This document shows positions 1 through 24,241 of a DNA stretch of 64,000 nucleotides, piece by piece. Each line of letters starts with the position of its first letter. Position 1 is the first letter of the stretch. Both the position numbers and the translations under genes were made by a program. This DNA is from a phage. The notes beneath the pieces were generated by a model. It saw nothing but the letters and a program-made list of their open reading frames with translations, made no database searches and had not been told where the DNA came from. The stretch is from the sequence record PX104380.1; one strand, written 5' to 3'.

Positions 1-92
1 TTTTCATTAAAAAATTTAGATGTAGTCAGTTCAGCAGTCATTTTAGAAGTGGAAGCTTTAATCAAACGGGATTTTAAATCTGCAATAGACAT
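1..92 (-). CDS. uvsX: UvsX recombinase, N-terminal fragment (gene continues past window start)
   Basis: Minus-strand ATG at 90-92 reads MSIADLKSRLIKASTSKMTAELTTSKFFNEK, matching the T4 UvsX N-terminus from memory; truncated by window edge. Confidence 0.6.
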   Translation of the reverse strand, partial: MSIADLKSRLIKASTSKMTAELTTSKFFNE

Positions 93-169
93 TCATTTTT
101 TCCATAGGCATCATTATATTTTCCTCACTGGTTAAAGATAAAGTAATTATAACACAATAAATTTAGGCA

Positions 170-1018
170 TTAATCAACTGCTATCGGATGAATAGCATTA
201 AACTTATGAAATGCTTCTGATTTTTCTTTACGCGAAACACACATGCGAAGAACCTTTAATGGCTCGTCTTCTTCACCCAACGATTTTCGTTTTTCAATAT
301 TAGAAGTTTTCCAACGAGCTTGCTCTGGAAACTCTCTATTGATTTGCTCAAGCGCTCTATTATGTTTAGAATTACTACGAATTGAACTGCACCCGCCAGG
401 AGCTTGTGCTTTTCCAGATACAACCAGATATTTGAACAAGGCCAAATGCGGATAACCTTGATTAATTAAATTGAGAAATGCATACATATCTTCGCACAAA
501 TCAATTTTTCCATACCCAATTTGTTCTGTCGTAAGTTTTCCAAGGTCATACCATGTATTCGTGAATCCATACGAATTTTCACGATAATTACCCCAAGATG
601 AAGTAATTTTAAAAATAGGTAGACGAGCATGGCCATGATAATACCCACAATCCATGGCATCCTCAACATATTGAATCAATTCATAGAACTGTTCACGGGT
701 TAATTGATTGACTTTATCCACACAACGACGATCATCTCTTTTTCGCATTGAACTCATACGAATAGTAGTATCATCGTCAATCATCCAGATTCGTTGACCT
801 GCATACATATCAGTAATTGCTTTACGAGTACCGGCAATTCCGTTTACATCATCAGGAATAGTTATAATTTTAGCTCTAGACCCATAAGCGTCATGATAAG
901 CTTTTTCTTCATGTTCACGTACTACGATATGAGGTTCATAATCAGTCGGAAACATATCAAGGGCAGAAACTGCCCCTACACGTTGATAGCTCGGAATTAC
1001 GAATTGAATCATTTCCAC
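170..1018 (-). CDS. putative DNA-modifying glycosyltransferase (DDD motif) at the locus where T4 has beta-glucosyltransferase
   Basis: 282 aa track ORF; GTG at 1018, first ATG at 1012 overlaps gene 42 stop (ATGA); IWMIDDDT resembles a GT-A DxD motif; sequence is not T4 beta-gt. Confidence 0.55.
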   Translation of the reverse strand: MEMIQFVIPSYQRVGAVSALDMFPTDYEPHIVVREHEEKAYHDAYGSRAKIITIPDDVNGIAGTRKAITDMYAGQRIWMIDDDTTIRMSSMRKRDDRRCVDKVNQLTREQFYELIQYVEDAMDCGYYHGHARLPIFKITSSWGNYRENSYGFTNTWYDLGKLTTEQIGYGKIDLCEDMYAFLNLINQGYPHLALFKYLVVSGKAQAPGGCSSIRSNSKHNRALEQINREFPEQARWKTSNIEKRKSLGEEDEPLKVLRMCVSRKEKSEAFHKFNAIHPIAVD

Positions 1019-1749
1019 TCACCGTTATAATCTTTTTTCACAATATGAGTTTCGCCAGTATTCCACCAATGATCAACCAAGTAAAAATGACGAGAATATA
1101 CATGAAGACTTCCGACATTCCATATAATAGAACCTGCTTTATATTGCCGCGATGGGTCGCCTGCATTCAAATCAGATACTAATTTATCTAGTACGTATTT
1201 TTGCCAAGCATAATCATTACGATAGCCTGCCCAGCAATCATTGCTTCTCATGCTAACAACCGCATTGACTTTCTTATCACGAATCAGGTACTGTACTGTA
1301 TTAGTACACATGAAATCTGACATACCATCTTTATTGTAGTCAAATTGCATGGATGGACGAGTATAAATCATGATACCACGTCGAGAATCAGGATTTTGAC
1401 CAAGTTCAGCTAAACACATATCATACTGGGCATAGTTATCTTCTGACCAGATAGCCCAACCATAATTTGAGTTAATTTCACCTTTAGAAGATGCTACCTG
1501 CTGCCAAATCTTTGGTGTTTCACCTGGAATATCTTTAACAAACAAGCTCTTAGATTTATACCATTCAAGTTCACGTTGAATGTATTCATCATTAAGAGCG
1601 CCAAAAATAAACGGTTCATCTGCTACAAATGATGCGCCAATAATTTCAATAGTTTTAACGCCAGTTTTATCAACTACGAAATCTTTTTCTTTTAATGCAA
1701 GCCCCAAATGAAGACGGATTTCTTCAACTGTCATAGAGTCACTAATCAT
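1009..1749 (-). CDS. 42: dCMP hydroxymethylase
   Basis: 246 aa, same length as T4 gp42; thymidylate-synthase-like fold motifs; ATG at 1747-1749; synteny next to gene 43. Confidence 0.9.
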   Translation of the reverse strand: MISDSMTVEEIRLHLGLALKEKDFVVDKTGVKTIEIIGASFVADEPFIFGALNDEYIQRELEWYKSKSLFVKDIPGETPKIWQQVASSKGEINSNYGWAIWSEDNYAQYDMCLAELGQNPDSRRGIMIYTRPSMQFDYNKDGMSDFMCTNTVQYLIRDKKVNAVVSMRSNDCWAGYRNDYAWQKYVLDKLVSDLNAGDPSRQYKAGSIIWNVGSLHVYSRHFYLVDHWWNTGETHIVKKDYNGEWK

Positions 1750-1902
1750 TTAAACCTCAATTGATACATTCATATTTAACTTGTAACAGTAATAAACCCC
1801 AACCTAAAATAATAGTTGGAATCATAAGAGGAACCGTTACACTATAGTATATACTTATTATAATCATCAAGATTAAAAGCAACACTGCTATAATTTTGCT
1901 TT

Positions 1903-2154
1903 TCATTCCTTCTCTCTGATGATAATTACCTGATTTGGTTGTGCAGACTTTTTAGTTTCACCCGCAATTGACCAAATAAATGTAATAAACCAACCAATAA
2001 TTGACCAGTTAAACAGTAAAGATGTGAAAAAGATTCCTACTGTCGATTTTGACCCACGCATCAAGGCGATAAACCATGGAAGCATGTATATAATAATAGC
2101 CAACACACCTGAAACTAAAACCATAAAAATTGAACCTGCTACTAAAGTTTCCAT
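1903..2154 (-). CDS. imm: Imm superinfection immunity membrane protein
   Basis: 83 aa, two hydrophobic segments, position between 42 and 43 as in T4. Confidence 0.7.
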   Translation of the reverse strand: METLVAGSIFMVLVSGVLAIIIYMLPWFIALMRGSKSTVGIFFTSLLFNWSIIGWFITFIWSIAGETKKSAQPNQVIIIREKE

Positions 2155-2161
2155 GTTTTCC

Positions 2162-2542
2162 TCACTTAGTCAAATTTTTTACACATGAATTATAAGAATT
2201 CACTACATACTCCATCGGAGCATTTTTACCAGTACGCCATTGGTAATTATTAGCCCAATTAGCCCAAAGCTCGGCGCAGTAGTTTTCAATTTTTTCTTCG
2301 CGTGTAATTACATCCGAATTACGATATGCTTGAGCAGATTCATCTGGACGAATAGCTTCGTCAAAATTCGCCTGCATTTGTTCGACTGTTTGCTTTGGAG
2401 CTTCTTTATAACACTTGACATTAGGATTATAAAATTTGCTTGAACAGTTTACAATTTTTCCTACATCAGACTGATTTACTACCGGTCCTTGAGCTACACA
2501 ACCAGTAAGACCTAATGCAATAACCAAAATAGTGATTTTCAT
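2162..2542 (-). CDS. predicted lipoprotein (imm.1-like)
   Basis: 126 aa; N-terminal signal peptide with LTGC lipobox; Cys-rich mature part. Confidence 0.5.
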   Translation of the reverse strand: MKITILVIALGLTGCVAQGPVVNQSDVGKIVNCSSKFYNPNVKCYKEAPKQTVEQMQANFDEAIRPDESAQAYRNSDVITREEKIENYCAELWANWANNYQWRTGKNAPMEYVVNSYNSCVKNLTK

Positions 2543-2552
2543 AATAATTTCC

Positions 2553-2801
2553 TCAAATGCAAGTAGTAATTACTCCAGTAGTGCTTATGCAGGTATTACC
2601 CATTTGCACACCTAAAGATCCATTTGTATTCACATGAAGATTATCATCAATTTTAACTGATATTTTACCATTAGTGTGAATAACGGTGCTAGATTCAATC
2701 ACAGGTTGAGTATCATTTTCAACACTAACAAATGGAACTGCTGCTAATGCAACTAAACAAACTGCTAAGCATCCAATAACAATTTTCATTTTATTCTCCA
2801 A
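2553..2801 (-). CDS. small secreted protein (43.1-like)
   Basis: 82 aa with N-terminal signal peptide; preceded by conserved early promoter/leader cassette. Confidence 0.45.
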   Translation of the reverse strand: MENKMKIVIGCLAVCLVALAAVPFVSVENDTQPVIESSTVIHTNGKISVKIDDNLHVNTNGSLGVQMGNTCISTTGVITTCI

Positions 2802-2823
2802 ATCTGTATTAGTTGATAGTTGT

Positions 2824-2853
2824 ATAGTACCATGGAAGAACAGTCTTGTAAAC
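2824..2853 (-). promoter_or_regulatory. T4-type early promoter (-35 GTTTACA, 17-nt spacer, -10 TACTAT) with conserved leader
   Basis: Plus-strand atagta at 2824-2829 and tgtaaac at 2847-2853; cassette repeated at five other sites. Confidence 0.55.
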
Positions 2854-2940
2854 AGTTTTGTGAAAATTTTTTAGGGAATTCTAAAGGTCCAGAATCATCT
2901 GTTTTTCATAAGTATAGATTTATATTACTTGTATGAAAAA

Positions 2941-2956
2941 GGGACCCGGAGGTCCC
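2941..2956 (-). terminator. stem-loop followed by U-run downstream of gene 43 (minus strand)
   Basis: gggacccggaggtccc inverted repeat; minus strand reads GGGACCUCCGGGUCCC then UUUUU. Confidence 0.55.
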
Positions 2957-2969
2957 TAGATTTATTCTA

Positions 2970-5666
2970 TCAGCCAAACAGGAAGTCTAACGAAGCTTTT
3001 TCTTCATAGTCCATACCAGCCGATTCACACATGCCCGCAAGCGGTTTAACAAACGATTTTTGGAACAAAGTTGAATAGTCAATCCAAGACAGTACGTCAG
3101 AACGAATTTCTTTTGGAAGTTCTGTACCCGACGGCCAAGCAATGCATTTGTCACCAAATGGATTTCCTTCACGCAATGGAAGAACCATTACTTTATTTCC
3201 ATCCAAAATTGGAGCTACACCTAAACCGCTAACAGCTCGACGATAAGTTAGCACACCACGAATATGGAACGGACATTTAAATCCTGGCCAACCTTTATCA
3301 TCATATTTCGCTATATCGTTCGCAGTTTTTACTTCAGCAATAACTTTATAGTCAAGTTGACGATATTCTTTCTCGAAGTTCTTGTAATATTCTTGGACAG
3401 ACTCTTCACCTTCCTGAAGAATACGACGAATACTTTCTTCAAGAGCTTCTTGGACCGCTTTAGGCGTTGAACTTTGCTGAGTTTCCATACCCATGATTTT
3501 TAGATGCGGTTCAGCAAATCGCTTATCTTCCATATCATAAACGTTCAGAGCATAACGCTTTTTCGCTTTCCAAAATCCACCAACGCCCTTTGAACCAAGT
3601 GGAGGGCAAGAAATAGCTTCACGGTCCATATGCATCAGATGCTCGCGGTTATTCATATAATCACATAACTCACGATATGCAACATCAATCATAGGTTCCA
3701 TCTTTTTCTTACCGAACTGATTCATGAATTCAACTAAATCGTTCTGCTCTTTGAATCGGCCAAGACCAACTTTTTCAATAACTTTATCTACACAAACATA
3801 TACCGAATCAGTATCACCTGCTGCGATGAAATCTTCGCCATTAGTTCCGCATACTTTATTCAGATATTCATTAATTTTACGAGCAATCCACTGAATACCA
3901 ACTTGGCCGAAAATTGTGATAGCAGTAGCATTTCGCAAATCATAGTAACGGAAATGAATATTACCAAGAGCACCATAAAGACTGTTAATAAGAATTTTAC
4001 GGTTCAGCTGATTTGTGTTAGCAAGTGTAGCCGCTTTTTCACATTCTTCAATCAAACTATTGAGAACAGATTCAGTATAATTCGATAGTTCATTTAAGAA
4101 ATCATCACTGAACTTAACATATCGTTCAACTTCAGGTTTAGTTGAACAAGACCCTGCGCCTTTCATAATAATCTTTTTAATAGCTTCGGCATTCATTTCT
4201 TCAGCGAACATTTTCTTTTTCCAATCTTTACGCTGGAAAAATACTTTAGCGATTTCCTTTGGAATGATACCTTCTTGATGCTTATCGTACATCCATCCAT
4301 TCGGAGAACAAGAATATTCATCACTCGGTTTAGGAGCTGTTCCTGCGATATATTCATGAATTGGATGAACTTTAAACTGACCACGAATAGTCTCAGGACT
4401 AATGTTAACCTGACGAATAATGCTCGGATACAGAGAAGTCAAGTCAAAACTCATAATATATCGACGAGCAATTGGTTTAGGTTCAAATACGAATGCACCC
4501 GGAAAACTCTGTTTAACATGCGAACCTTGTTGAGGAATAACCTTATGTTCACCTTTCAATGAGTTAAAAATAATAGCATCCCAGGTTTTAATAGGACTCA
4601 TTACACCAGAAAAAGGCATTTTAGCGTAATAAGACATACTTAAAACTAGATCGATAAACCCGCGAATTTTATCAATTGCTTGAACTGATTCTACGTCAAT
4701 GATGTTATAACTAATGTATCGTTGATGATTAGTCTCACGAAGTTTATTAATAGGACCGTCGTATGGTAATTTACCTTTTTTGGTTTCATGCTGAGCAACT
4801 GATTCCAAAGAGAATGACGGCAAATTAGTAAATGCGAATTTCTTATACAAATCTAAATAATCAAGAATAGATACGCCATCAATAGAATAAATTTCTTTGC
4901 TACCGTACATATTTTGGATAAGTTTAGATTTTACTCGACCGATTGGAGAGAAGCGTTTCATACTACGTTCACCGAGAACCATTTTAACGCGATTCATGAT
5001 ATACGGAACGTCAAACCCCTCAATATTCCAACCAGTAAAAATAGCAGGTCGTTTCTGTTCCCAGAGATTGATATATTCCATGAGCATATCACGCTCATTA
5101 TCGAATGGCATATAAATTACTCGGTCAAGAATTTCTTGAGGAACTTCATCACCACCTTCACAGTCAAGCTTAGCAGCTAACTTTGCATCCCATTTTGATA
5201 CTGAACCATACATTGAATTCAAAAGGTCGAAAACATAAAAACGATCATCAATTGAATCGTAATGAGTGATAGCATCAATTTCATATTCTGCTTTCATTGG
5301 GTCAGGAAATTTATCGCCAGTAACCTCAATGTCACAGTTAGCTACACGAACAAATTTTCGGTCATAAACAATTTCTGAACCGTATGTATCACTGATATAA
5401 GCGAGTTTAAAATCGTTCATACCGAGAGCTTCGAGACCGATATCTTCCATTCGTTTCATCCAATCTCGAGCATCTTTCATTGATGGAAATTTTTGAGGAG
5501 CGCAGTTTTTACCATAGATGTCTTTGTACTTTGACTCTTCCTTACAATGCCTAAACATAGTTGGAAGATATTCTACTTCACGAGTACGTTCCTTTCCGTT
5601 TTCATCAATATAACGTTCAACAATGTTATTTCCGACTGTTTCAATAGAGATATAAAATTCTTTCAT
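2970..5666 (-). CDS. 43: DNA polymerase (family B) with 3'-5' exonuclease
   Basis: 898 aa, same length as T4 gp43; exo motif FDIE, polymerase motifs SLYPS and YGDTDS; ATG at 5664-5666. Confidence 0.95.
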   Translation of the reverse strand: MKEFYISIETVGNNIVERYIDENGKERTREVEYLPTMFRHCKEESKYKDIYGKNCAPQKFPSMKDARDWMKRMEDIGLEALGMNDFKLAYISDTYGSEIVYDRKFVRVANCDIEVTGDKFPDPMKAEYEIDAITHYDSIDDRFYVFDLLNSMYGSVSKWDAKLAAKLDCEGGDEVPQEILDRVIYMPFDNERDMLMEYINLWEQKRPAIFTGWNIEGFDVPYIMNRVKMVLGERSMKRFSPIGRVKSKLIQNMYGSKEIYSIDGVSILDYLDLYKKFAFTNLPSFSLESVAQHETKKGKLPYDGPINKLRETNHQRYISYNIIDVESVQAIDKIRGFIDLVLSMSYYAKMPFSGVMSPIKTWDAIIFNSLKGEHKVIPQQGSHVKQSFPGAFVFEPKPIARRYIMSFDLTSLYPSIIRQVNISPETIRGQFKVHPIHEYIAGTAPKPSDEYSCSPNGWMYDKHQEGIIPKEIAKVFFQRKDWKKKMFAEEMNAEAIKKIIMKGAGSCSTKPEVERYVKFSDDFLNELSNYTESVLNSLIEECEKAATLANTNQLNRKILINSLYGALGNIHFRYYDLRNATAITIFGQVGIQWIARKINEYLNKVCGTNGEDFIAAGDTDSVYVCVDKVIEKVGLGRFKEQNDLVEFMNQFGKKKMEPMIDVAYRELCDYMNNREHLMHMDREAISCPPLGSKGVGGFWKAKKRYALNVYDMEDKRFAEPHLKIMGMETQQSSTPKAVQEALEESIRRILQEGEESVQEYYKNFEKEYRQLDYKVIAEVKTANDIAKYDDKGWPGFKCPFHIRGVLTYRRAVSGLGVAPILDGNKVMVLPLREGNPFGDKCIAWPSGTELPKEIRSDVLSWIDYSTLFQKSFVKPLAGMCESAGMDYEEKASLDFLFG

Positions 5667-7913: not shown

Positions 7914-8600
7914 TTAAAAATCGTGGGTAGAATCAGCTTCAAGAGCTACTACATAATTCGCGTGTTCACCTTCAAATTTAGCAGCACCTTGTTTACCTTT
8001 TGCCCAGAGCAGAAGTTTATAATTTCCTGGTTGCATTTTCATATTTGCCATATTGATAATGAAATTAAATGTATTTTCACCATCATAATCACCAAGAGTC
8101 AAAGAATATTTAACACGTGTCAGAGCAGAATCTTCTACTTTATTAAAACCGTTAATTACGATTTTACCTTCTTTTACCGTGATAGCAATTGTATCAATTT
8201 GCAGACCACGAGATACACGCAACAGTTGTTGAAGGTCTTCAGCTTTAATTTCAGTAACAACAGATGCTACCGGGAATGGAATTGGTTTATTAGGAGCAAC
8301 TACTGTACTCGGATCGGCTGCTGGCCAAAAAATTGTTGAACGGGCATCAGCAATTTTAATATTTCCATCTTCTGACTGGGAAATTTCTGCATCATCATTA
8401 ACTAGAGACAGAATACCGAGAAAACCGTTCAAATCGTAAATTGCTACATCAAAATCAATAGTGTCAGAAATATTTGCTTCCGCATAAGTTGTACCATTAA
8501 CTGCGCGAGTCATAATAAATTGACCGGATTTAAGCATAATACCGGAGTTAATAGTAGCGAAATTTTTCAAAATATTCAGTGTGTCTTTAGATAATTTCAT
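7914..8600 (-). CDS. 45: sliding clamp
   Basis: 228 aa, same length as T4 gp45; synteny. Confidence 0.9.
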   Translation of the reverse strand: MKLSKDTLNILKNFATINSGIMLKSGQFIMTRAVNGTTYAEANISDTIDFDVAIYDLNGFLGILSLVNDDAEISQSEDGNIKIADARSTIFWPAADPSTVVAPNKPIPFPVASVVTEIKAEDLQQLLRVSRGLQIDTIAITVKEGKIVINGFNKVEDSALTRVKYSLTLGDYDGENTFNFIINMANMKMQPGNYKLLLWAKGKQGAAKFEGEHANYVVALEADSTHDF

Positions 8601-9484
8601 TTCAATTTCCTATTTACATAATAGTTAGACCAGGACCGTACAGCACCCTGATAAGATTCGTCGTTAAACCCATTAGCTACTGCAATTTTACGAAATTTAT
8701 TATAACTCGGTTTTCCGTAAGCATGCCATAAAGATTTTAATTCATCTTCATGTTCAATCCAAGTTCCTCTAGCTTTAGATTTTCTAAATTTTGATTTGAA
8801 TTCCGGTGAATTATTTCTAACAGTTGCTTGAATTGAAGCTCTCTGTCTTCTTTCAGCATTATTCCATAACTCTTTTTGAGATTTAGAAATTTTTGATTTT
8901 ACACTTTCTGAATTCATTATATCACTAAACTTTTTAGCATAACTGCAATCAAGATATTTCAATTTCATCTTATTTGAAAGTTTAAGCTTTTTCTCATCGG
9001 TCCAGTGATTCTTCATTGAATTAGATATTTTGTATTTTACGTCAGAACTATGTTTGTAACCTTTACGAATACCAACATAATCGGGCGTAATTTCAGATTG
9101 CGAAAGCTTTACAATTTTTCCAGTTAAAACATTTTTATATGTTCCATATCCTTTAGCGCCAATTAAAGTATTTTCATCTGCGTATGCTTTATTAAAATAT
9201 TTTATATTACTTTTTGCTTTAACTTTTAATTGAAAAAATCTTTCCAATTTTCTTGGATCTAATATAGTTTCAGCTAAAATTTTGACGGTATATTTAGTGG
9301 TTTTAATAAGCTCAAAATATTCATCGCTATAACTCGATGACACGCTTCCAGTATAAATCTTTCCAGCTGAATCAATTATATTTGTTCCATCGAAAATTGC
9401 GTCAATTTTCGAACCTATATAATAACATGGAAAAATATTTTTAGCTTCCCGCTCTGGAAAGCTAATAAGATATACTAAATTCAT
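8597..9484 (-). CDS. free-standing homing-endonuclease-like protein (degenerate GIY-YIG, NUMOD-like C-terminus)
   Basis: 295 aa inserted between 45 and rpbA; N-terminal VYLISF...YYIGSK; C-terminal repeats [10 protein letters not shown] and [11 protein letters not shown]; 4-nt overlaps at both ends. Confidence 0.5.
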
Positions 9485-9870
9485 TTATTAAAATCAGCCA
9501 CAATTGTTTCCGCAACAAGTTGAGCAGCAACAATTAGACGTTCATCTGCATTACCGCAATAATCATCTTCAAGACGTTCACCGCATGAAGTCATAATAAA
9601 TTTAGCGCCAGCATTTAGAGATTCTGTCGTATGTTTACGCATTAGTTCAATCCATTTATCACTCACTTCACGATCGATAGCTTCATAATACGCATGACGA
9701 GCAGGTGCAGATTTAATTTTGTTCTGTATAACTTCCATTGCGTTATCAGAAAGAGACAAAACCCATGCTCGACGAATTTTATTTTGGTTTTGCGGATTTG
9801 ATTCAGAACGCACGTGTTTTGGCTGAATATCTTTTACATCAACAGTATAATTCACAGTAATTTTAGTCAT
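9481..9870 (-). CDS. rpbA: RNA polymerase binding protein RpbA
   Basis: 129 aa, same length and position as T4 rpbA. Confidence 0.7.
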
Positions 9871-13446: not shown

Positions 13447-14649
13447 TTATTTTGTAATAATGTCAAACTGTTCTTTAAAGCAGAAGCTTGAATCTTGATG
13501 CTGATACAAAAATTCATAAGCTTTTTCGCGTTCGCGGTCATAAAGAGTTCGGTCAGATGACAGTTCTTTAATACGCTCGAATGTTGATTCCATGTCATTT
13601 TCATCAAACCAAACGATACCGCTATCATGAGAAATTAATGGAGTGTTATCAACACGGAATTTTAAATTTTCGCCAGTAGATTTCCAAAATACCGGAATTG
13701 TTCCACATGCACCAAGCTCGAGATGAGTATATTCTAAAGAACGCTGTAGATATTTTTTGTCCAACTTACTCAGCTGATAACCAAAACCGGATTTACTCAT
13801 ACGTTCAAGCATTTCGCTATTTACATAACGGTCAAGAATTTGCGTTGGCAAATTAGGAGCAATTTTAATTTGGTCTACTTGATGAAGACGATAATACTCG
13901 TATGGAATTCCTTTTTCTTTAATAGGAATGAACGCTGGAGAACGTTCCAGACCTTCCATAATAGTACTTAGTCCTGCAGGTTTAAGATGTTTTTCATGAA
14001 AATCAAACATCTGATAAAAACCTTTCCATGTAGTCGTACGACCAATCCAACGGTTGATATTCATGTTAATTTCAGAAACATCTTTCCAGTAGGTTGACCG
14101 AACCTTCGCAATATCCATAGGAGGCTGAAAGTTATATACGGTCGGCGCTTCTTCAATATCATCAAACAGAGAAACAGTTTCTGGATACCATTCTTTCATC
14201 AGAACTTTATTAAAATCACCATTATCAGAATGGCTAAAAATAACATCAGCTCGACGAACAGTTTCTTCTAATCCCAAATTTCGACGCAAAGAAAGAGAAG
14301 AATGGTCGTGTTGATAAACTACAACACGAACAGAAGGTTTAATGTTATCAATAATTTTTTTATAGTTATTAATAGTGTCTTCTTCAACCGAAGTAGCAGG
14401 AACCGAATTGATAATTAGAATATCACAATCATTTACCAGCTTAAGTGTTTTATCGTATTCTTTTGCCAATAAAACCGGAATTGAAAATGATTTATAATCA
14501 TGCGCACAATTACGAGTAAATGATTTATCTTTAGCATAAACCAAAGTTACTTCATGACCATTTTTAATAAACCAATCACGTTGCTCAAGAGAAAATTTAG
14601 TTACACCACAACCTTCAAGACCTCGAGCCATAAAAATACATACTTTCAT
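13447..14649 (-). CDS. a-gt: DNA alpha-glucosyltransferase
   Basis: 400 aa; near-identical over long stretches to T4 alpha-gt as recalled (CIFMARGLEGCGVTKFSLEQRDWFIKNGHEVTLVYAKDKSF). Confidence 0.9.
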   Translation of the reverse strand: MKVCIFMARGLEGCGVTKFSLEQRDWFIKNGHEVTLVYAKDKSFTRNCAHDYKSFSIPVLLAKEYDKTLKLVNDCDILIINSVPATSVEEDTINNYKKIIDNIKPSVRVVVYQHDHSSLSLRRNLGLEETVRRADVIFSHSDNGDFNKVLMKEWYPETVSLFDDIEEAPTVYNFQPPMDIAKVRSTYWKDVSEINMNINRWIGRTTTWKGFYQMFDFHEKHLKPAGLSTIMEGLERSPAFIPIKEKGIPYEYYRLHQVDQIKIAPNLPTQILDRYVNSEMLERMSKSGFGYQLSKLDKKYLQRSLEYTHLELGACGTIPVFWKSTGENLKFRVDNTPLISHDSGIVWFDENDMESTFERIKELSSDRTLYDREREKAYEFLYQHQDSSFCFKEQFDIITK

Positions 14650-21837: not shown

Positions 21838-22307
21838 TTTAAACTCTTTCTAAGCTGCTTCTTGAATGAAGCTATTAATTGTGTTTTGGTGTCAGATTCA
21901 TTATATTCAAATCCTCTTTGAAGCATCTCGGCAATCATTTCCTCTTTTCCTAAACGAGAAAATTCCTTTGATTTATCTCCAACAAAGTTAGGGTGAATAT
22001 TATTTTGGGTGTAATCGGATTTTAAATAAGTAAGTAAATTTTCTAACCATTCAAGATAATCAACACCTTGCCCCTTTAAGCCAGAACGATTAAATTTATG
22101 TTTCATTTGACCTTCCGCGGCATTGCAGAGATTACAAAGCAATCCACGTACCTTTCCTGCTTTTGGTCCATTTAATTCATGGTCATGGTCAAGGTGATTA
22201 GCTTGAACATCAGGATTTAATTCTCGTTGGCAAATTAAGCATTTACCATTTTGTGCATCATAAAATTTCTGTTTTTCTTCTTTATATAATTTGCCAGTCA
22301 ATAACAT
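21834..22307 (-). CDS. 49: endonuclease VII (Holliday junction resolvase)
   Basis: 157 aa, same length as T4 gp49; CLIC...CNLC zinc site and HLDHDH. Confidence 0.8.
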   Translation of the reverse strand: MLLTGKLYKEEKQKFYDAQNGKCLICQRELNPDVQANHLDHDHELNGPKAGKVRGLLCNLCNAAEGQMKHKFNRSGLKGQGVDYLEWLENLLTYLKSDYTQNNIHPNFVGDKSKEFSRLGKEEMIAEMLQRGFEYNESDTKTQLIASFKKQLRKSLK

Positions 22308-22348
22308 AATAAACCCTTACCTTAAATAGATAAGGGTATTTATTATTT

Positions 22349-22852
22349 TCAAGTATTGTAAAACATTCGATGCAATCGCTTATATTGCCGAATCTTTTGG
22401 TCAGAAAAAGAAATTTGGGTTTCAAGCCATTCAATATATTCTGCCGCAGCTTGCATCAGGTTACCTTCATAGCCATCGTTATTTTCTTGCGCAGCTAATT
22501 TAGCTAATGCGTATGAAATACGTTCACCTTGAAAATCGGCTTTAGGCTTCTGAACAACTTGATTAGTTCGCTCTACAACTTCTTCAATTTCGCCATTTTC
22601 AACGGATTCAGTATTCCATAAGCACCAATACGTAATTGGCTTATCATAGATATTAATAATCTTTCCGTCGGAAAGTTCAATTTCAATAATTCCAGTATCA
22701 GGCTCTATATCATCTTCACATTCTTTTGCAAGTTCACGAACTTTAAAGACAGTACCTGCGCTAAGTTCCGGCCAGTAATTACACAGCCCTGTATCAGCAC
22801 GATTAATTCTAAACCACTTATCTACTGTAATCATGTCCCATCTCCATATCAA
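22349..22852 (-). CDS. hypothetical protein (position of pin/49.x)
   Basis: 167 aa; assignment to pin is by position only. Confidence 0.35.
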   Translation of the reverse strand: MIWRWDMITVDKWFRINRADTGLCNYWPELSAGTVFKVRELAKECEDDIEPDTGIIEIELSDGKIINIYDKPITYWCLWNTESVENGEIEEVVERTNQVVQKPKADFQGERISYALAKLAAQENNDGYEGNLMQAAAEYIEWLETQISFSDQKIRQYKRLHRMFYNT

Positions 22853-22956
22853 TTAAGTCATTTATCGTTGGTTCATTATATACTGTTTCTTCATCAGTGT
22901 AAACCGGTTCTTCCGGCTCTGGCTCTACAGTTTCCCATCTAGCCGCCCACCAAGGT

Positions 22957-23166
22957 TTAACCCCGAAGCTTATTAAGTTCTTCATCATCAATCCAGGATT
23001 CTAGTCCTGTTGGCAGGTCACATTCAATTTCCCAAAGAAGTTCTTCAATTTTCTGAAGACGATCTAGTTCTTCAGCAGGAATAGTAACCATTGACGGAGC
23101 TCTTGCTACATTAATATCGTAAATCATATTTACCCCAGTTTGACCATACAATCGCCGTATTTCCAC
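22957..23166 (-). CDS. hypothetical protein
   Basis: 69 aa track ORF. Confidence 0.4.
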   Translation of the reverse strand: MEIRRLYGQTGVNMIYDINVARAPSMVTIPAEELDRLQKIEELLWEIECDLPTGLESWIDDEELNKLRG

Positions 23167-23345
23167 TTAGAAATAGACTTTTCACCATTAGAATAATAAA
23201 CTTCAAGTTTAGCACGATTATTTTTAATTTGAATAACCTTGGCTGTCATCAAAGTTCCATACCCATAATAAACTGCAACTTCATCACCTACATATACCGC
23301 GCTTCCGCGGTAATCATGGATATAATCAGTTCCTTCGAGCATCAT
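23130..23345 (-). CDS. hypothetical protein
   Basis: 71 aa track ORF. Confidence 0.4.
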   Translation of the reverse strand: MMLEGTDYIHDYRGSAVYVGDEVAVYYGYGTLMTAKVIQIKNNRAKLEVYYSNGEKSISKWKYGDCMVKLG

Positions 23346-23605
23346 TTAAAGTATTCCCGCAATTGGTCAAATCCACCAATATGACTTCCATCAGGAGCAA
23401 ATACTTGTGGCATTGTCAAACCAATTTGAGTATCACGACCTAGTTTAGTCAGAAGCTCAGCGATTTTCTCATCATCAAAAACACCTTTTTCCGGCATAAT
23501 GTTGATAAATTCAAACGGCTGTTTCTTCACGGTCAAAAGACGTTTTGCATTATCACAATACACGCATTTGTGGATGTTGCTATCATAACCATATACTTTA
23601 AACAT
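23342..23605 (-). CDS. nrdC: phage thioredoxin/glutaredoxin
   Basis: 87 aa, CVYC active site, same length as T4 NrdC. Confidence 0.8.
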   Translation of the reverse strand: MFKVYGYDSNIHKCVYCDNAKRLLTVKKQPFEFINIMPEKGVFDDEKIAELLTKLGRDTQIGLTMPQVFAPDGSHIGGFDQLREYFK

Positions 23606-23606
23606 A

Positions 23607-23849
23607 TTATTCCTTAATTCCTAGTACTTGTTTAAAAGTCTCGTCGTAATCAAGACTTTGACCCGTTTGTTCTTTATGTTTGTATATAATATCACTTACT
23701 TCTGATAGCATATTTTTATATGAACGAGTTAAAGCAGATTTAAGCACGCTGTATCTATCAGGAAATTTACCATGTTCATTATAATAAGCTATTGCTAATT
23801 CACGGACTGCCTTTTCAGCAGCCTCCATATATTCTTTACGCTTGGTCAT
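23607..23849 (-). CDS. hypothetical protein (nrdC.1-like)
   Basis: 80 aa. Confidence 0.5.
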
Positions 23850-23851
23850 TT

Positions 23852-24241
23852 TTAATCCAAAATATTATTAGGCATTGGTTGAACACTCACAAGTTCTTTA
23901 AAGAACTCAGTAGAATCAGGCAATTTAACCATTTCCGGAGCATGCTTACTGAATTTATGTTTACATTGACGGCATTTATATTCAAGCTCTGGTTTACGCC
24001 AGTTAATCAATTGAACTTGTTCAGTACCGCATTCAGGGCAATTAGGAACATTTTTAGAAGCTCTTTCACGTCGTTCAACCATAACCATAATGGCATCCCA
24101 AGCAGGAGGTTTAAAGTCTAAATCGTCACAACCATGAATCTTTCCACGCATTTCCAAATCGTCTTCTTCACCAGCCATAATAATTTTAATTAGACTAGAA
24201 TTACTTGAAGCTGCAATATCTTCTAATAAACGCTTTTTCAT
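23852..24241 (-). CDS. zinc-ribbon protein
   Basis: 129 aa; CPECG...CRQC four-Cys motif. Confidence 0.5.

Follow-up and report, generated by a model that had tools for sequence, protein, structure and literature searches.

Which host defences are able to act against a T-even phage depends on the sugars that its 5hmC carries; the defences concerned include GmrSD-type type IV restriction enzymes, CRISPR nucleases, the DNA glycosylases Brig1 and Brig3, and the glucosidase BapA. Knowledge of the gene set behind this sugar pattern is of use both in annotation and in the choice of phages. In the phage DNA analyzed here, a stretch of 64,000 nucleotides (PX104380.1; hereafter the window), the locus at which T4 carries beta-gt is occupied by a minus-strand open reading frame that had been predicted, from the letters of the sequence, to encode a different glycosyltransferase. 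This raises the question of which enzyme fills the slot, on which acceptor it acts, and what sugar pattern the phage DNA would carry as a consequence.

Identity of the gene in the beta-gt slot

The open reading frame spans exactly positions 170..1018 of the minus strand and can be read as 282 residues from a GTG at 1018 or as 280 residues from an ATG at 1012, which agrees with the product length given in the original prediction. The start region, read on the minus strand, is ...AACGGTGAGTGGAAATGATTCAA..., in which the ATG (1012..1010) lies over the TGA of gene 42 (1011..1009) to form an ATGA overlap at 1009..1012. The records of both T2 genomes annotate an orthologue of 280 residues with the identical overlap, and nearly all of the cluster members listed have this length. 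For these reasons we take the coding sequence of the beta-glucosyl-HMC-alpha-glucosyltransferase gene, ba-gt (also named g-gt, ggt or TAGT), to be 170..1012 on the minus strand, with its stop codon at 170..172. The GTG at 1018 was rejected as a start in view of the overlap with gene 42 and the length of the orthologues, and 280 residues from the ATG is the likelier product. The overlap also suggests that translation of ba-gt may be coupled to that of gene 42.

A scan for promoters and terminators around ba-gt gave nothing convincing. The lone terminator-like hairpin (978..958, minus strand) lies within the coding sequence and is probably due to chance, and the consensus promoter scan called no promoter in the 77-nt spacer that separates ba-gt from uvsX, in which two TATAAT hexamers are visible.

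The protein matches PHROG 842, "beta-glucosyl-HMC-alpha-glucosyltransferase", over residues 2-277 with an E-value of 3e-89, and the match is therefore far beyond chance. It also matches the Pfam family PF20691 (TAGT, TET-associated glycosyltransferase) with 41.3 bits against a gathering cut-off of 27.5, residues 5-209 being aligned to profile positions 2-205 of 205. The proteins found at the same site in T2 and T6 are identical to it at 277 and 276 of 280 residues, respectively. The exact 280-residue sequence is already public, being present on 22 contigs, and one deposited name of the identical protein, from Shigella phage SHBML-50-1 (ANN87250.1), is again beta-glucosyl-HMC-alpha-glucosyltransferase. 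NCBIfam holds no model for ba-gt or alpha-gt. Both the T2 and the T6 gene have reportedly been cloned, according to a 1993 note in Nucleic Acids Research.

Comparison with T4 beta-gt gives the opposite picture. BLASTP finds no similarity between this protein and that of the window (best E-value 2.2), and tblastn finds no homologue of T4 beta-gt anywhere in the 64-kb window at E<=10. In a Pfam scan the window protein is matched by PF20691 only and T4 beta-gt by PF09198 (E-value 9e-98). These results make it almost certain that the window gene is a T2/T6-type beta-glucosyl-HMC-alpha-glucosyltransferase, which extends phage DNA that is already glucosylated. The original prediction had named this enzyme and had noted the lack of resemblance to T4 beta-gt; both points are borne out by the 99% identity to the T2 and T6 proteins, the two family matches and the separate Pfam families. 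The window allele differs from T2 at three residues and from T6 at four, and we assume from the 99% identity that it would be active.

Predicted fold and conserved residues

A homologue search of two rounds recovered 51 relatives, PF20691 being present in 45 of them. In an alignment of 49 sequences, which reaches down to about 13% identity and includes metagenomic members, only R11, R63 and D79-D80-D81 are invariant, and I6, P7, R32, Y39, T62 and R212 are near-invariant. All of the invariant residues are intact in the window protein. The triple aspartate, which had been picked out from the sequence as a GT-A-like motif, is real; its codons lie at 770..778 (minus strand), it follows directly after a predicted strand formed by residues 74-78, and as a DXD-type motif it presumably binds the divalent metal and the UDP-sugar. 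A second motif, V5-IPSYQ-R11 (codons at 980..1000, minus strand), stands after the first strand and resembles the nucleotide-binding motif of GT2-type enzymes. In GT2-type GT-A enzymes the motif at the IPSYQ position lines the nucleotide pocket, and general knowledge of the GT-A fold points to a role in nucleotide binding for the window motif as well.

The AlphaFold2 model built on the homologue alignment has a mean pLDDT of 92.2 and a pTM of 0.90, and is of the alpha/beta type. The predicted fold consists of one Rossmann-like alpha/beta/alpha domain, and it can be superposed on GT-A enzymes of solved structure. The fold rests on prediction, since a search of the PDB by sequence returned no solved relative, with a best E-value of 1.6 to an unrelated protein. 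The window enzyme is thus predicted to be of the GT-A fold with a DXD motif, the fold that the original prediction had expected a structure model to give. The T6 enzyme has likewise been assigned to PF20691 and modelled as GT-A, and the phage TAGTs have been placed as a sister group of GT2 (PMC13216743, 2026 Nucleic Acids Research).

The enzyme of the window and T4 beta-gt share the genomic slot next to gene 42, and T4 beta-gt and ba-gt both use UDP-glucose to form a beta linkage on T-even DNA (PMC13160076, PMC13216743). They differ in family and in fold, T4 beta-gt being a GT-B enzyme of PF09198 and the window protein a predicted GT-A enzyme of PF20691. They also differ in acceptor, which is 5hmC itself for T4 beta-gt, and alpha-glucosyl-5hmC for ba-gt of the T2/T6 type.

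Since a GT-A fold alone does not reveal donor specificity, we considered a donor sugar different from glucose, such as arabinose as in RB69-type phages. T4-like phages do show a diversity of sugars (PMC6024577); however, none of the known glucosyltransferases has a homologue in RB69, which relies on another gene, ORF003c, and the window protein is 99% identical to T2 and T6 enzymes whose product is gentiobiose (PMC6024577). We therefore regard a different donor as extremely improbable, and glucose is the donor assumed below.

Predicted glucosylation and the T2 and T6 alleles

The acceptor of the T2/T6 enzyme is the product of two further activities, both of which are encoded in the window. Gene 42, for dCMP hydroxymethylase, lies directly upstream of ba-gt (1009..1749, minus strand) and is identified by a Pfam Thymidylat_synt match (E-value 7e-15) and by the annotations of near-identical phages. 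The DNA alpha-glucosyltransferase gene, alpha-gt (13447..14649, minus strand), matches PF11440 AGT with an E-value of 6e-236, and its product is identical to that of T4 alpha-gt at 363 of 400 residues (91%). It is clearly orthologous to the T4 gene, although its earlier description as nearly T4-identical was too strong. With both genes encoded, the phage can therefore make alpha-glucosyl-5hmC.

In the pathway that we propose, gp42 would make hydroxymethyl-dCMP, and its incorporation by the phage polymerase would place 5hmC in the DNA. With UDP-glucose as donor, the alpha-gt enzyme would place an alpha-linked glucose on about three quarters of the 5hmC, and ba-gt, by analogy with T2 and T6, would add a second glucose from UDP-glucose to the first in beta-1,6 linkage to give gentiobiosyl-5hmC. 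This last reaction presumably inverts the anomeric configuration, like the reactions of the GT2-type enzymes that are closest in structure. The 5hmC that is out of reach of alpha-gt would stay unglucosylated, because there is no T4-type beta-gt, as happens with some 25% of it in T2 and T6. Acceptor, linkage and effects on defence are here carried over from the T2/T6 literature. The T2/T6 genomes resemble the window phage, as seen over 64 kb, in having alpha-gt and gene 42 and in lacking a T4-type beta-gt. Given alpha-gt and ba-gt together and the absence of beta-gt, the DNA of the window phage is predicted to be T2/T6-like, with gentiobiosyl- and alpha-glucosyl-5hmC and some naked 5hmC, and would bring T2/T6-like sensitivity to the defences named above.

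The effect of the second sugar is known from T6, in which deletion of ba-gt leaves alpha-glucosyl-5hmC as the only glucosylated form, increases the sensitivity of the phage to Brig1 and allows both the Brig1 glycosylase and the BapA glucosidase to use its DNA as a substrate; in vitro, both enzymes are blocked by the doubled sugar (PMC11078745, PMC13160076). The same deletion bears on the possibility that the enzyme is a primary transferase acting on naked 5hmC, which would take the place of beta-gt and would not extend alpha-glucosyl-5hmC. The gene does occupy the positional slot of beta-gt, and some members of the family must act on the base, since distant TAGTs occur in phages without alpha-gt or beta-gt (PMC13216743). 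These other-phage members of PF20691 share R11, R63 and the triple aspartate with the window protein at 13-35% identity; they are linked to TET/5mC-oxidation pathways or are found in the phages just mentioned (PMC13216743), and for these reasons they probably glycosylate the base directly. In contrast, T2 and T6, with enzymes 99% identical to that of the window, keep about 25% of their 5hmC unglucosylated and have no beta-glucosyl-5hmC, and the T6 deletion mutant retains alpha-glucosyl-5hmC at the level expected of an enzyme that acts only by extension (PMC11078745, PMC13160076). A primary transferase is thus very unlikely in the window phage, and extension of alpha-glucosyl-5hmC remains the reading that we adopt.

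The extent of this extension is a separate matter. T2 DNA carries approximately 70% alpha-glucosyl-, 5% gentiobiosyl- and 25% naked 5hmC, and T6 DNA approximately 3% alpha-glucosyl-, 72% gentiobiosyl- and 25% naked 5hmC (PMC6024577, PMC13160076, PMC11078745). Gentiobiosylation is therefore about 14-fold apart in two phages with near-identical enzymes, and the level in the window phage is not readable from its sequence. There is a modest chance that the orthologue is weak in the window phage, as it is in T2, such that mono-alpha-glucosyl-5hmC is dominant and gentiobiosyl-5hmC minor; such a phage would differ from a T6-like one in extent, not in kind. Despite its 99% identity, the T2 gene yields gentiobiosyl-5hmC at a level of only about 5%, compared with about 72% for T6 (PMC6024577, PMC13160076), and the window protein is marginally nearer to the T2 protein (277/280) than to that of T6 (276/280). 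A candidate argument on the other side is that the window allele lacks one substitution that is peculiar to T2.

With the residue of the reference phage given first, the window protein carries H11R, Y40H and S251P relative to T2, and N40H, G55D and H106R relative to T6. The first of these positions is the invariant arginine of the N-terminal motif. R11H is present in ba-gt of both deposited T2 genomes (L002:4283-5125, AP018813; L006:1786-2628, MH751506), and arginine stands at residue 11 in all of the other sequences examined, which comprise 48 divergent homologues and a further 15 close alleles. Within the set of 17 close alleles the substitution is thus confined to T2, and the window has the arginine of T6 and of the family consensus. 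It is conceivable, though we would put it as a doubtful suggestion from the alignment, that R11H is hypomorphic and that the ba-gt allele itself sets the long-known difference in gentiobiosylation between T2 (~5%) and T6 (~72%); the gap could equally well have its cause in expression or in alpha-gt. If R11H were the true cause, the window allele, with R11 and an intact triple aspartate, would be expected to give heavy, T6-like gentiobiosylation, and a single residue would predict the sugar pattern of several hundred sequenced Tequatroviruses.

The deposited T6 genomes call for a comment of their own. In one of them (AP018814 = NC_054907; L003:4135-4974) ba-gt lacks three nucleotides, which reduces the family-invariant DDD to DD. 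In the other (MH550421; L005:1501-2343) codon 10 is changed from CAG to TAG (amber), and the 'ggt' coding sequence is annotated from a downstream start as a protein of 261 residues. We considered whether the loss of one aspartate in AP018814 is a trait of the T6 enzyme as such, and rejected this because MH550421 keeps DDD. As T6 is the classic heavily gentiobiosylated phage, and yet each of its genomes has a lesion in ba-gt, some of the sequenced laboratory stocks of T6 may be mutant in ba-gt. The window allele carries neither of the two lesions.

Distribution and neighborhood of ba-gt

The replacement of beta-gt by ba-gt, as the original prediction had put it, is correct in that a different enzyme sits in the T4 slot; the polarity that it implies is misleading. 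In the phage collection a ba-gt homologue of at least 95% protein identity occurs in about 473 phage records, and a T4-type beta-gt of at least 90% identity in only 29, so that ba-gt is the common state of Tequatrovirus, T4 is the exception and the window phage the norm. This is consistent with published work, in which most glycosyltransferase-encoding phages pair an alpha-GT or a beta-GT with a TAGT, and the pair of alpha-GT and beta-GT seen in T4 is restricted to a few phages closely related to it (PMC13216743). The gene has already been described in print, together with its function, activity, fold and distribution (T6 ba-gt deletions; PMC13216743), the exact protein is deposited, and none of this is new.

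About 200 further records hold a homologue at 60-80% identity, mostly from Klebsiella and Enterobacter T4-like phages, and in these too the gene adjoins gene 42. In the T4-like phages of Klebsiella, Enterobacter, Salmonella and Citrobacter (CC31, Merlin, STP4-a and others) the homologue adjoining gene 42 is 64-66% identical to the window protein. Unlike the window, the phages of the CC31, STP4-a and Merlin type have a homologue of T4 beta-gt (~49% identity) as the neighbour of the ba-gt homologue (~65%). In CC31 (NC_014662 / GU323318) the beta-gt and ba-gt homologues lie at 22120-23193 and 23199-24026, and the records of Merlin, CF1 and similar phages have both annotations under the same match. 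This side-by-side arrangement suggests a beta-glucosyl-primed disaccharide and not the alpha-primed gentiobiose of T2 and T6; the acceptor in these phages is probably beta-glucosyl-5hmC instead of alpha-glucosyl-5hmC.

The order of genes on the minus strand of the window is uvsX, ba-gt, gene 42, a 49-aa open reading frame, imm, imm.1, an 82-aa open reading frame and gene 43. The order uvsX - glycosyltransferase - 42 - imm - 43 that had been read from the sequence is therefore correct, with all of these genes on the minus strand. The 5' end of uvsX (1..92, minus strand; start ATG at 92..90) lies just downstream of ba-gt and is recognized by its sequence and by the annotations of matching phages. 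The genes imm (1903..2154, minus strand; Imm_superinfect, E-value 8e-16), imm.1 (2162..2542, minus strand; DUF5481) and gene 43 for DNA polymerase (2970..5666, minus strand; from the list of open reading frames) follow upstream of gene 42. T2 and T6 have ba-gt at the same position, flanked by uvsX and gene 42; the length of 280 residues and the ATGA overlap are shared, the amino acid identity is 99%, and positions 1..2554 of the window are collinear with T2 at 96.6% identity.

Alignment of positions 1..3000 with the T4 locus by blastn shows that the assignment of ba-gt to the T4 beta-gt locus holds, as the gene fills the slot between T4-homologous flanks. Homology to T4 ends at position 80, after 89% identity over the 5' end of uvsX (1..80), and restarts at 1027 in the region of gene 42, which is 95% identical to T4 at the nucleotide level. 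The cassette between the junctions (81..1026) is unlike T4; it measures 946 nt in the window phage, made up of the intergenic spacer and ba-gt, and 1,941 nt in T4, made up of segA and beta-gt. The segA homing endonuclease gene, which in T4 lies between uvsX and beta-gt (L001:9571-10236), is absent from 81..169 and from the window cassette as a whole. Gene 42 itself contains the junction at 1027, about 18 nt from its 3' end, so that the final few codons for gp42 move together with the glucosyltransferase cassette and not with the remainder of the gene.

Other insertions were seen in this part of the genome. In the related phages JK23, PYps14T and AV120 the region that matches window positions 1..1800 is interrupted by an insertion of about 630 nt, and the annotation of JK23 under that match includes a 'site-specific intron-like DNA endonuclease'. 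The 82-aa open reading frame between imm.1 and gene 43 (2553..2801, minus strand) belongs to PHROG 4189, to which PHROG assigns no function. T2 has an open reading frame of similar size (83 aa) at this position; the DNA at 2555..2809 has no blastn match to T2 or T4, and the region looks like another small replaceable cassette. Finally, an open reading frame of 295 aa (8597..9484, minus strand) lies between gene 45 (7914..8600) and rpbA (9481..9870), with a 4-nt overlap at both ends, at a position where T2, T4 and T6 have nothing. It occurs at 95% identity or more in only 25 phage records, and at 100% in one (Tequatrovirus BCH953P4, OZ035784). Its product matches PHROG 655 'homing endonuclease' with an E-value of 3e-32, and the gene is probably a mobile insertion encoding a Seg-like endonuclease.
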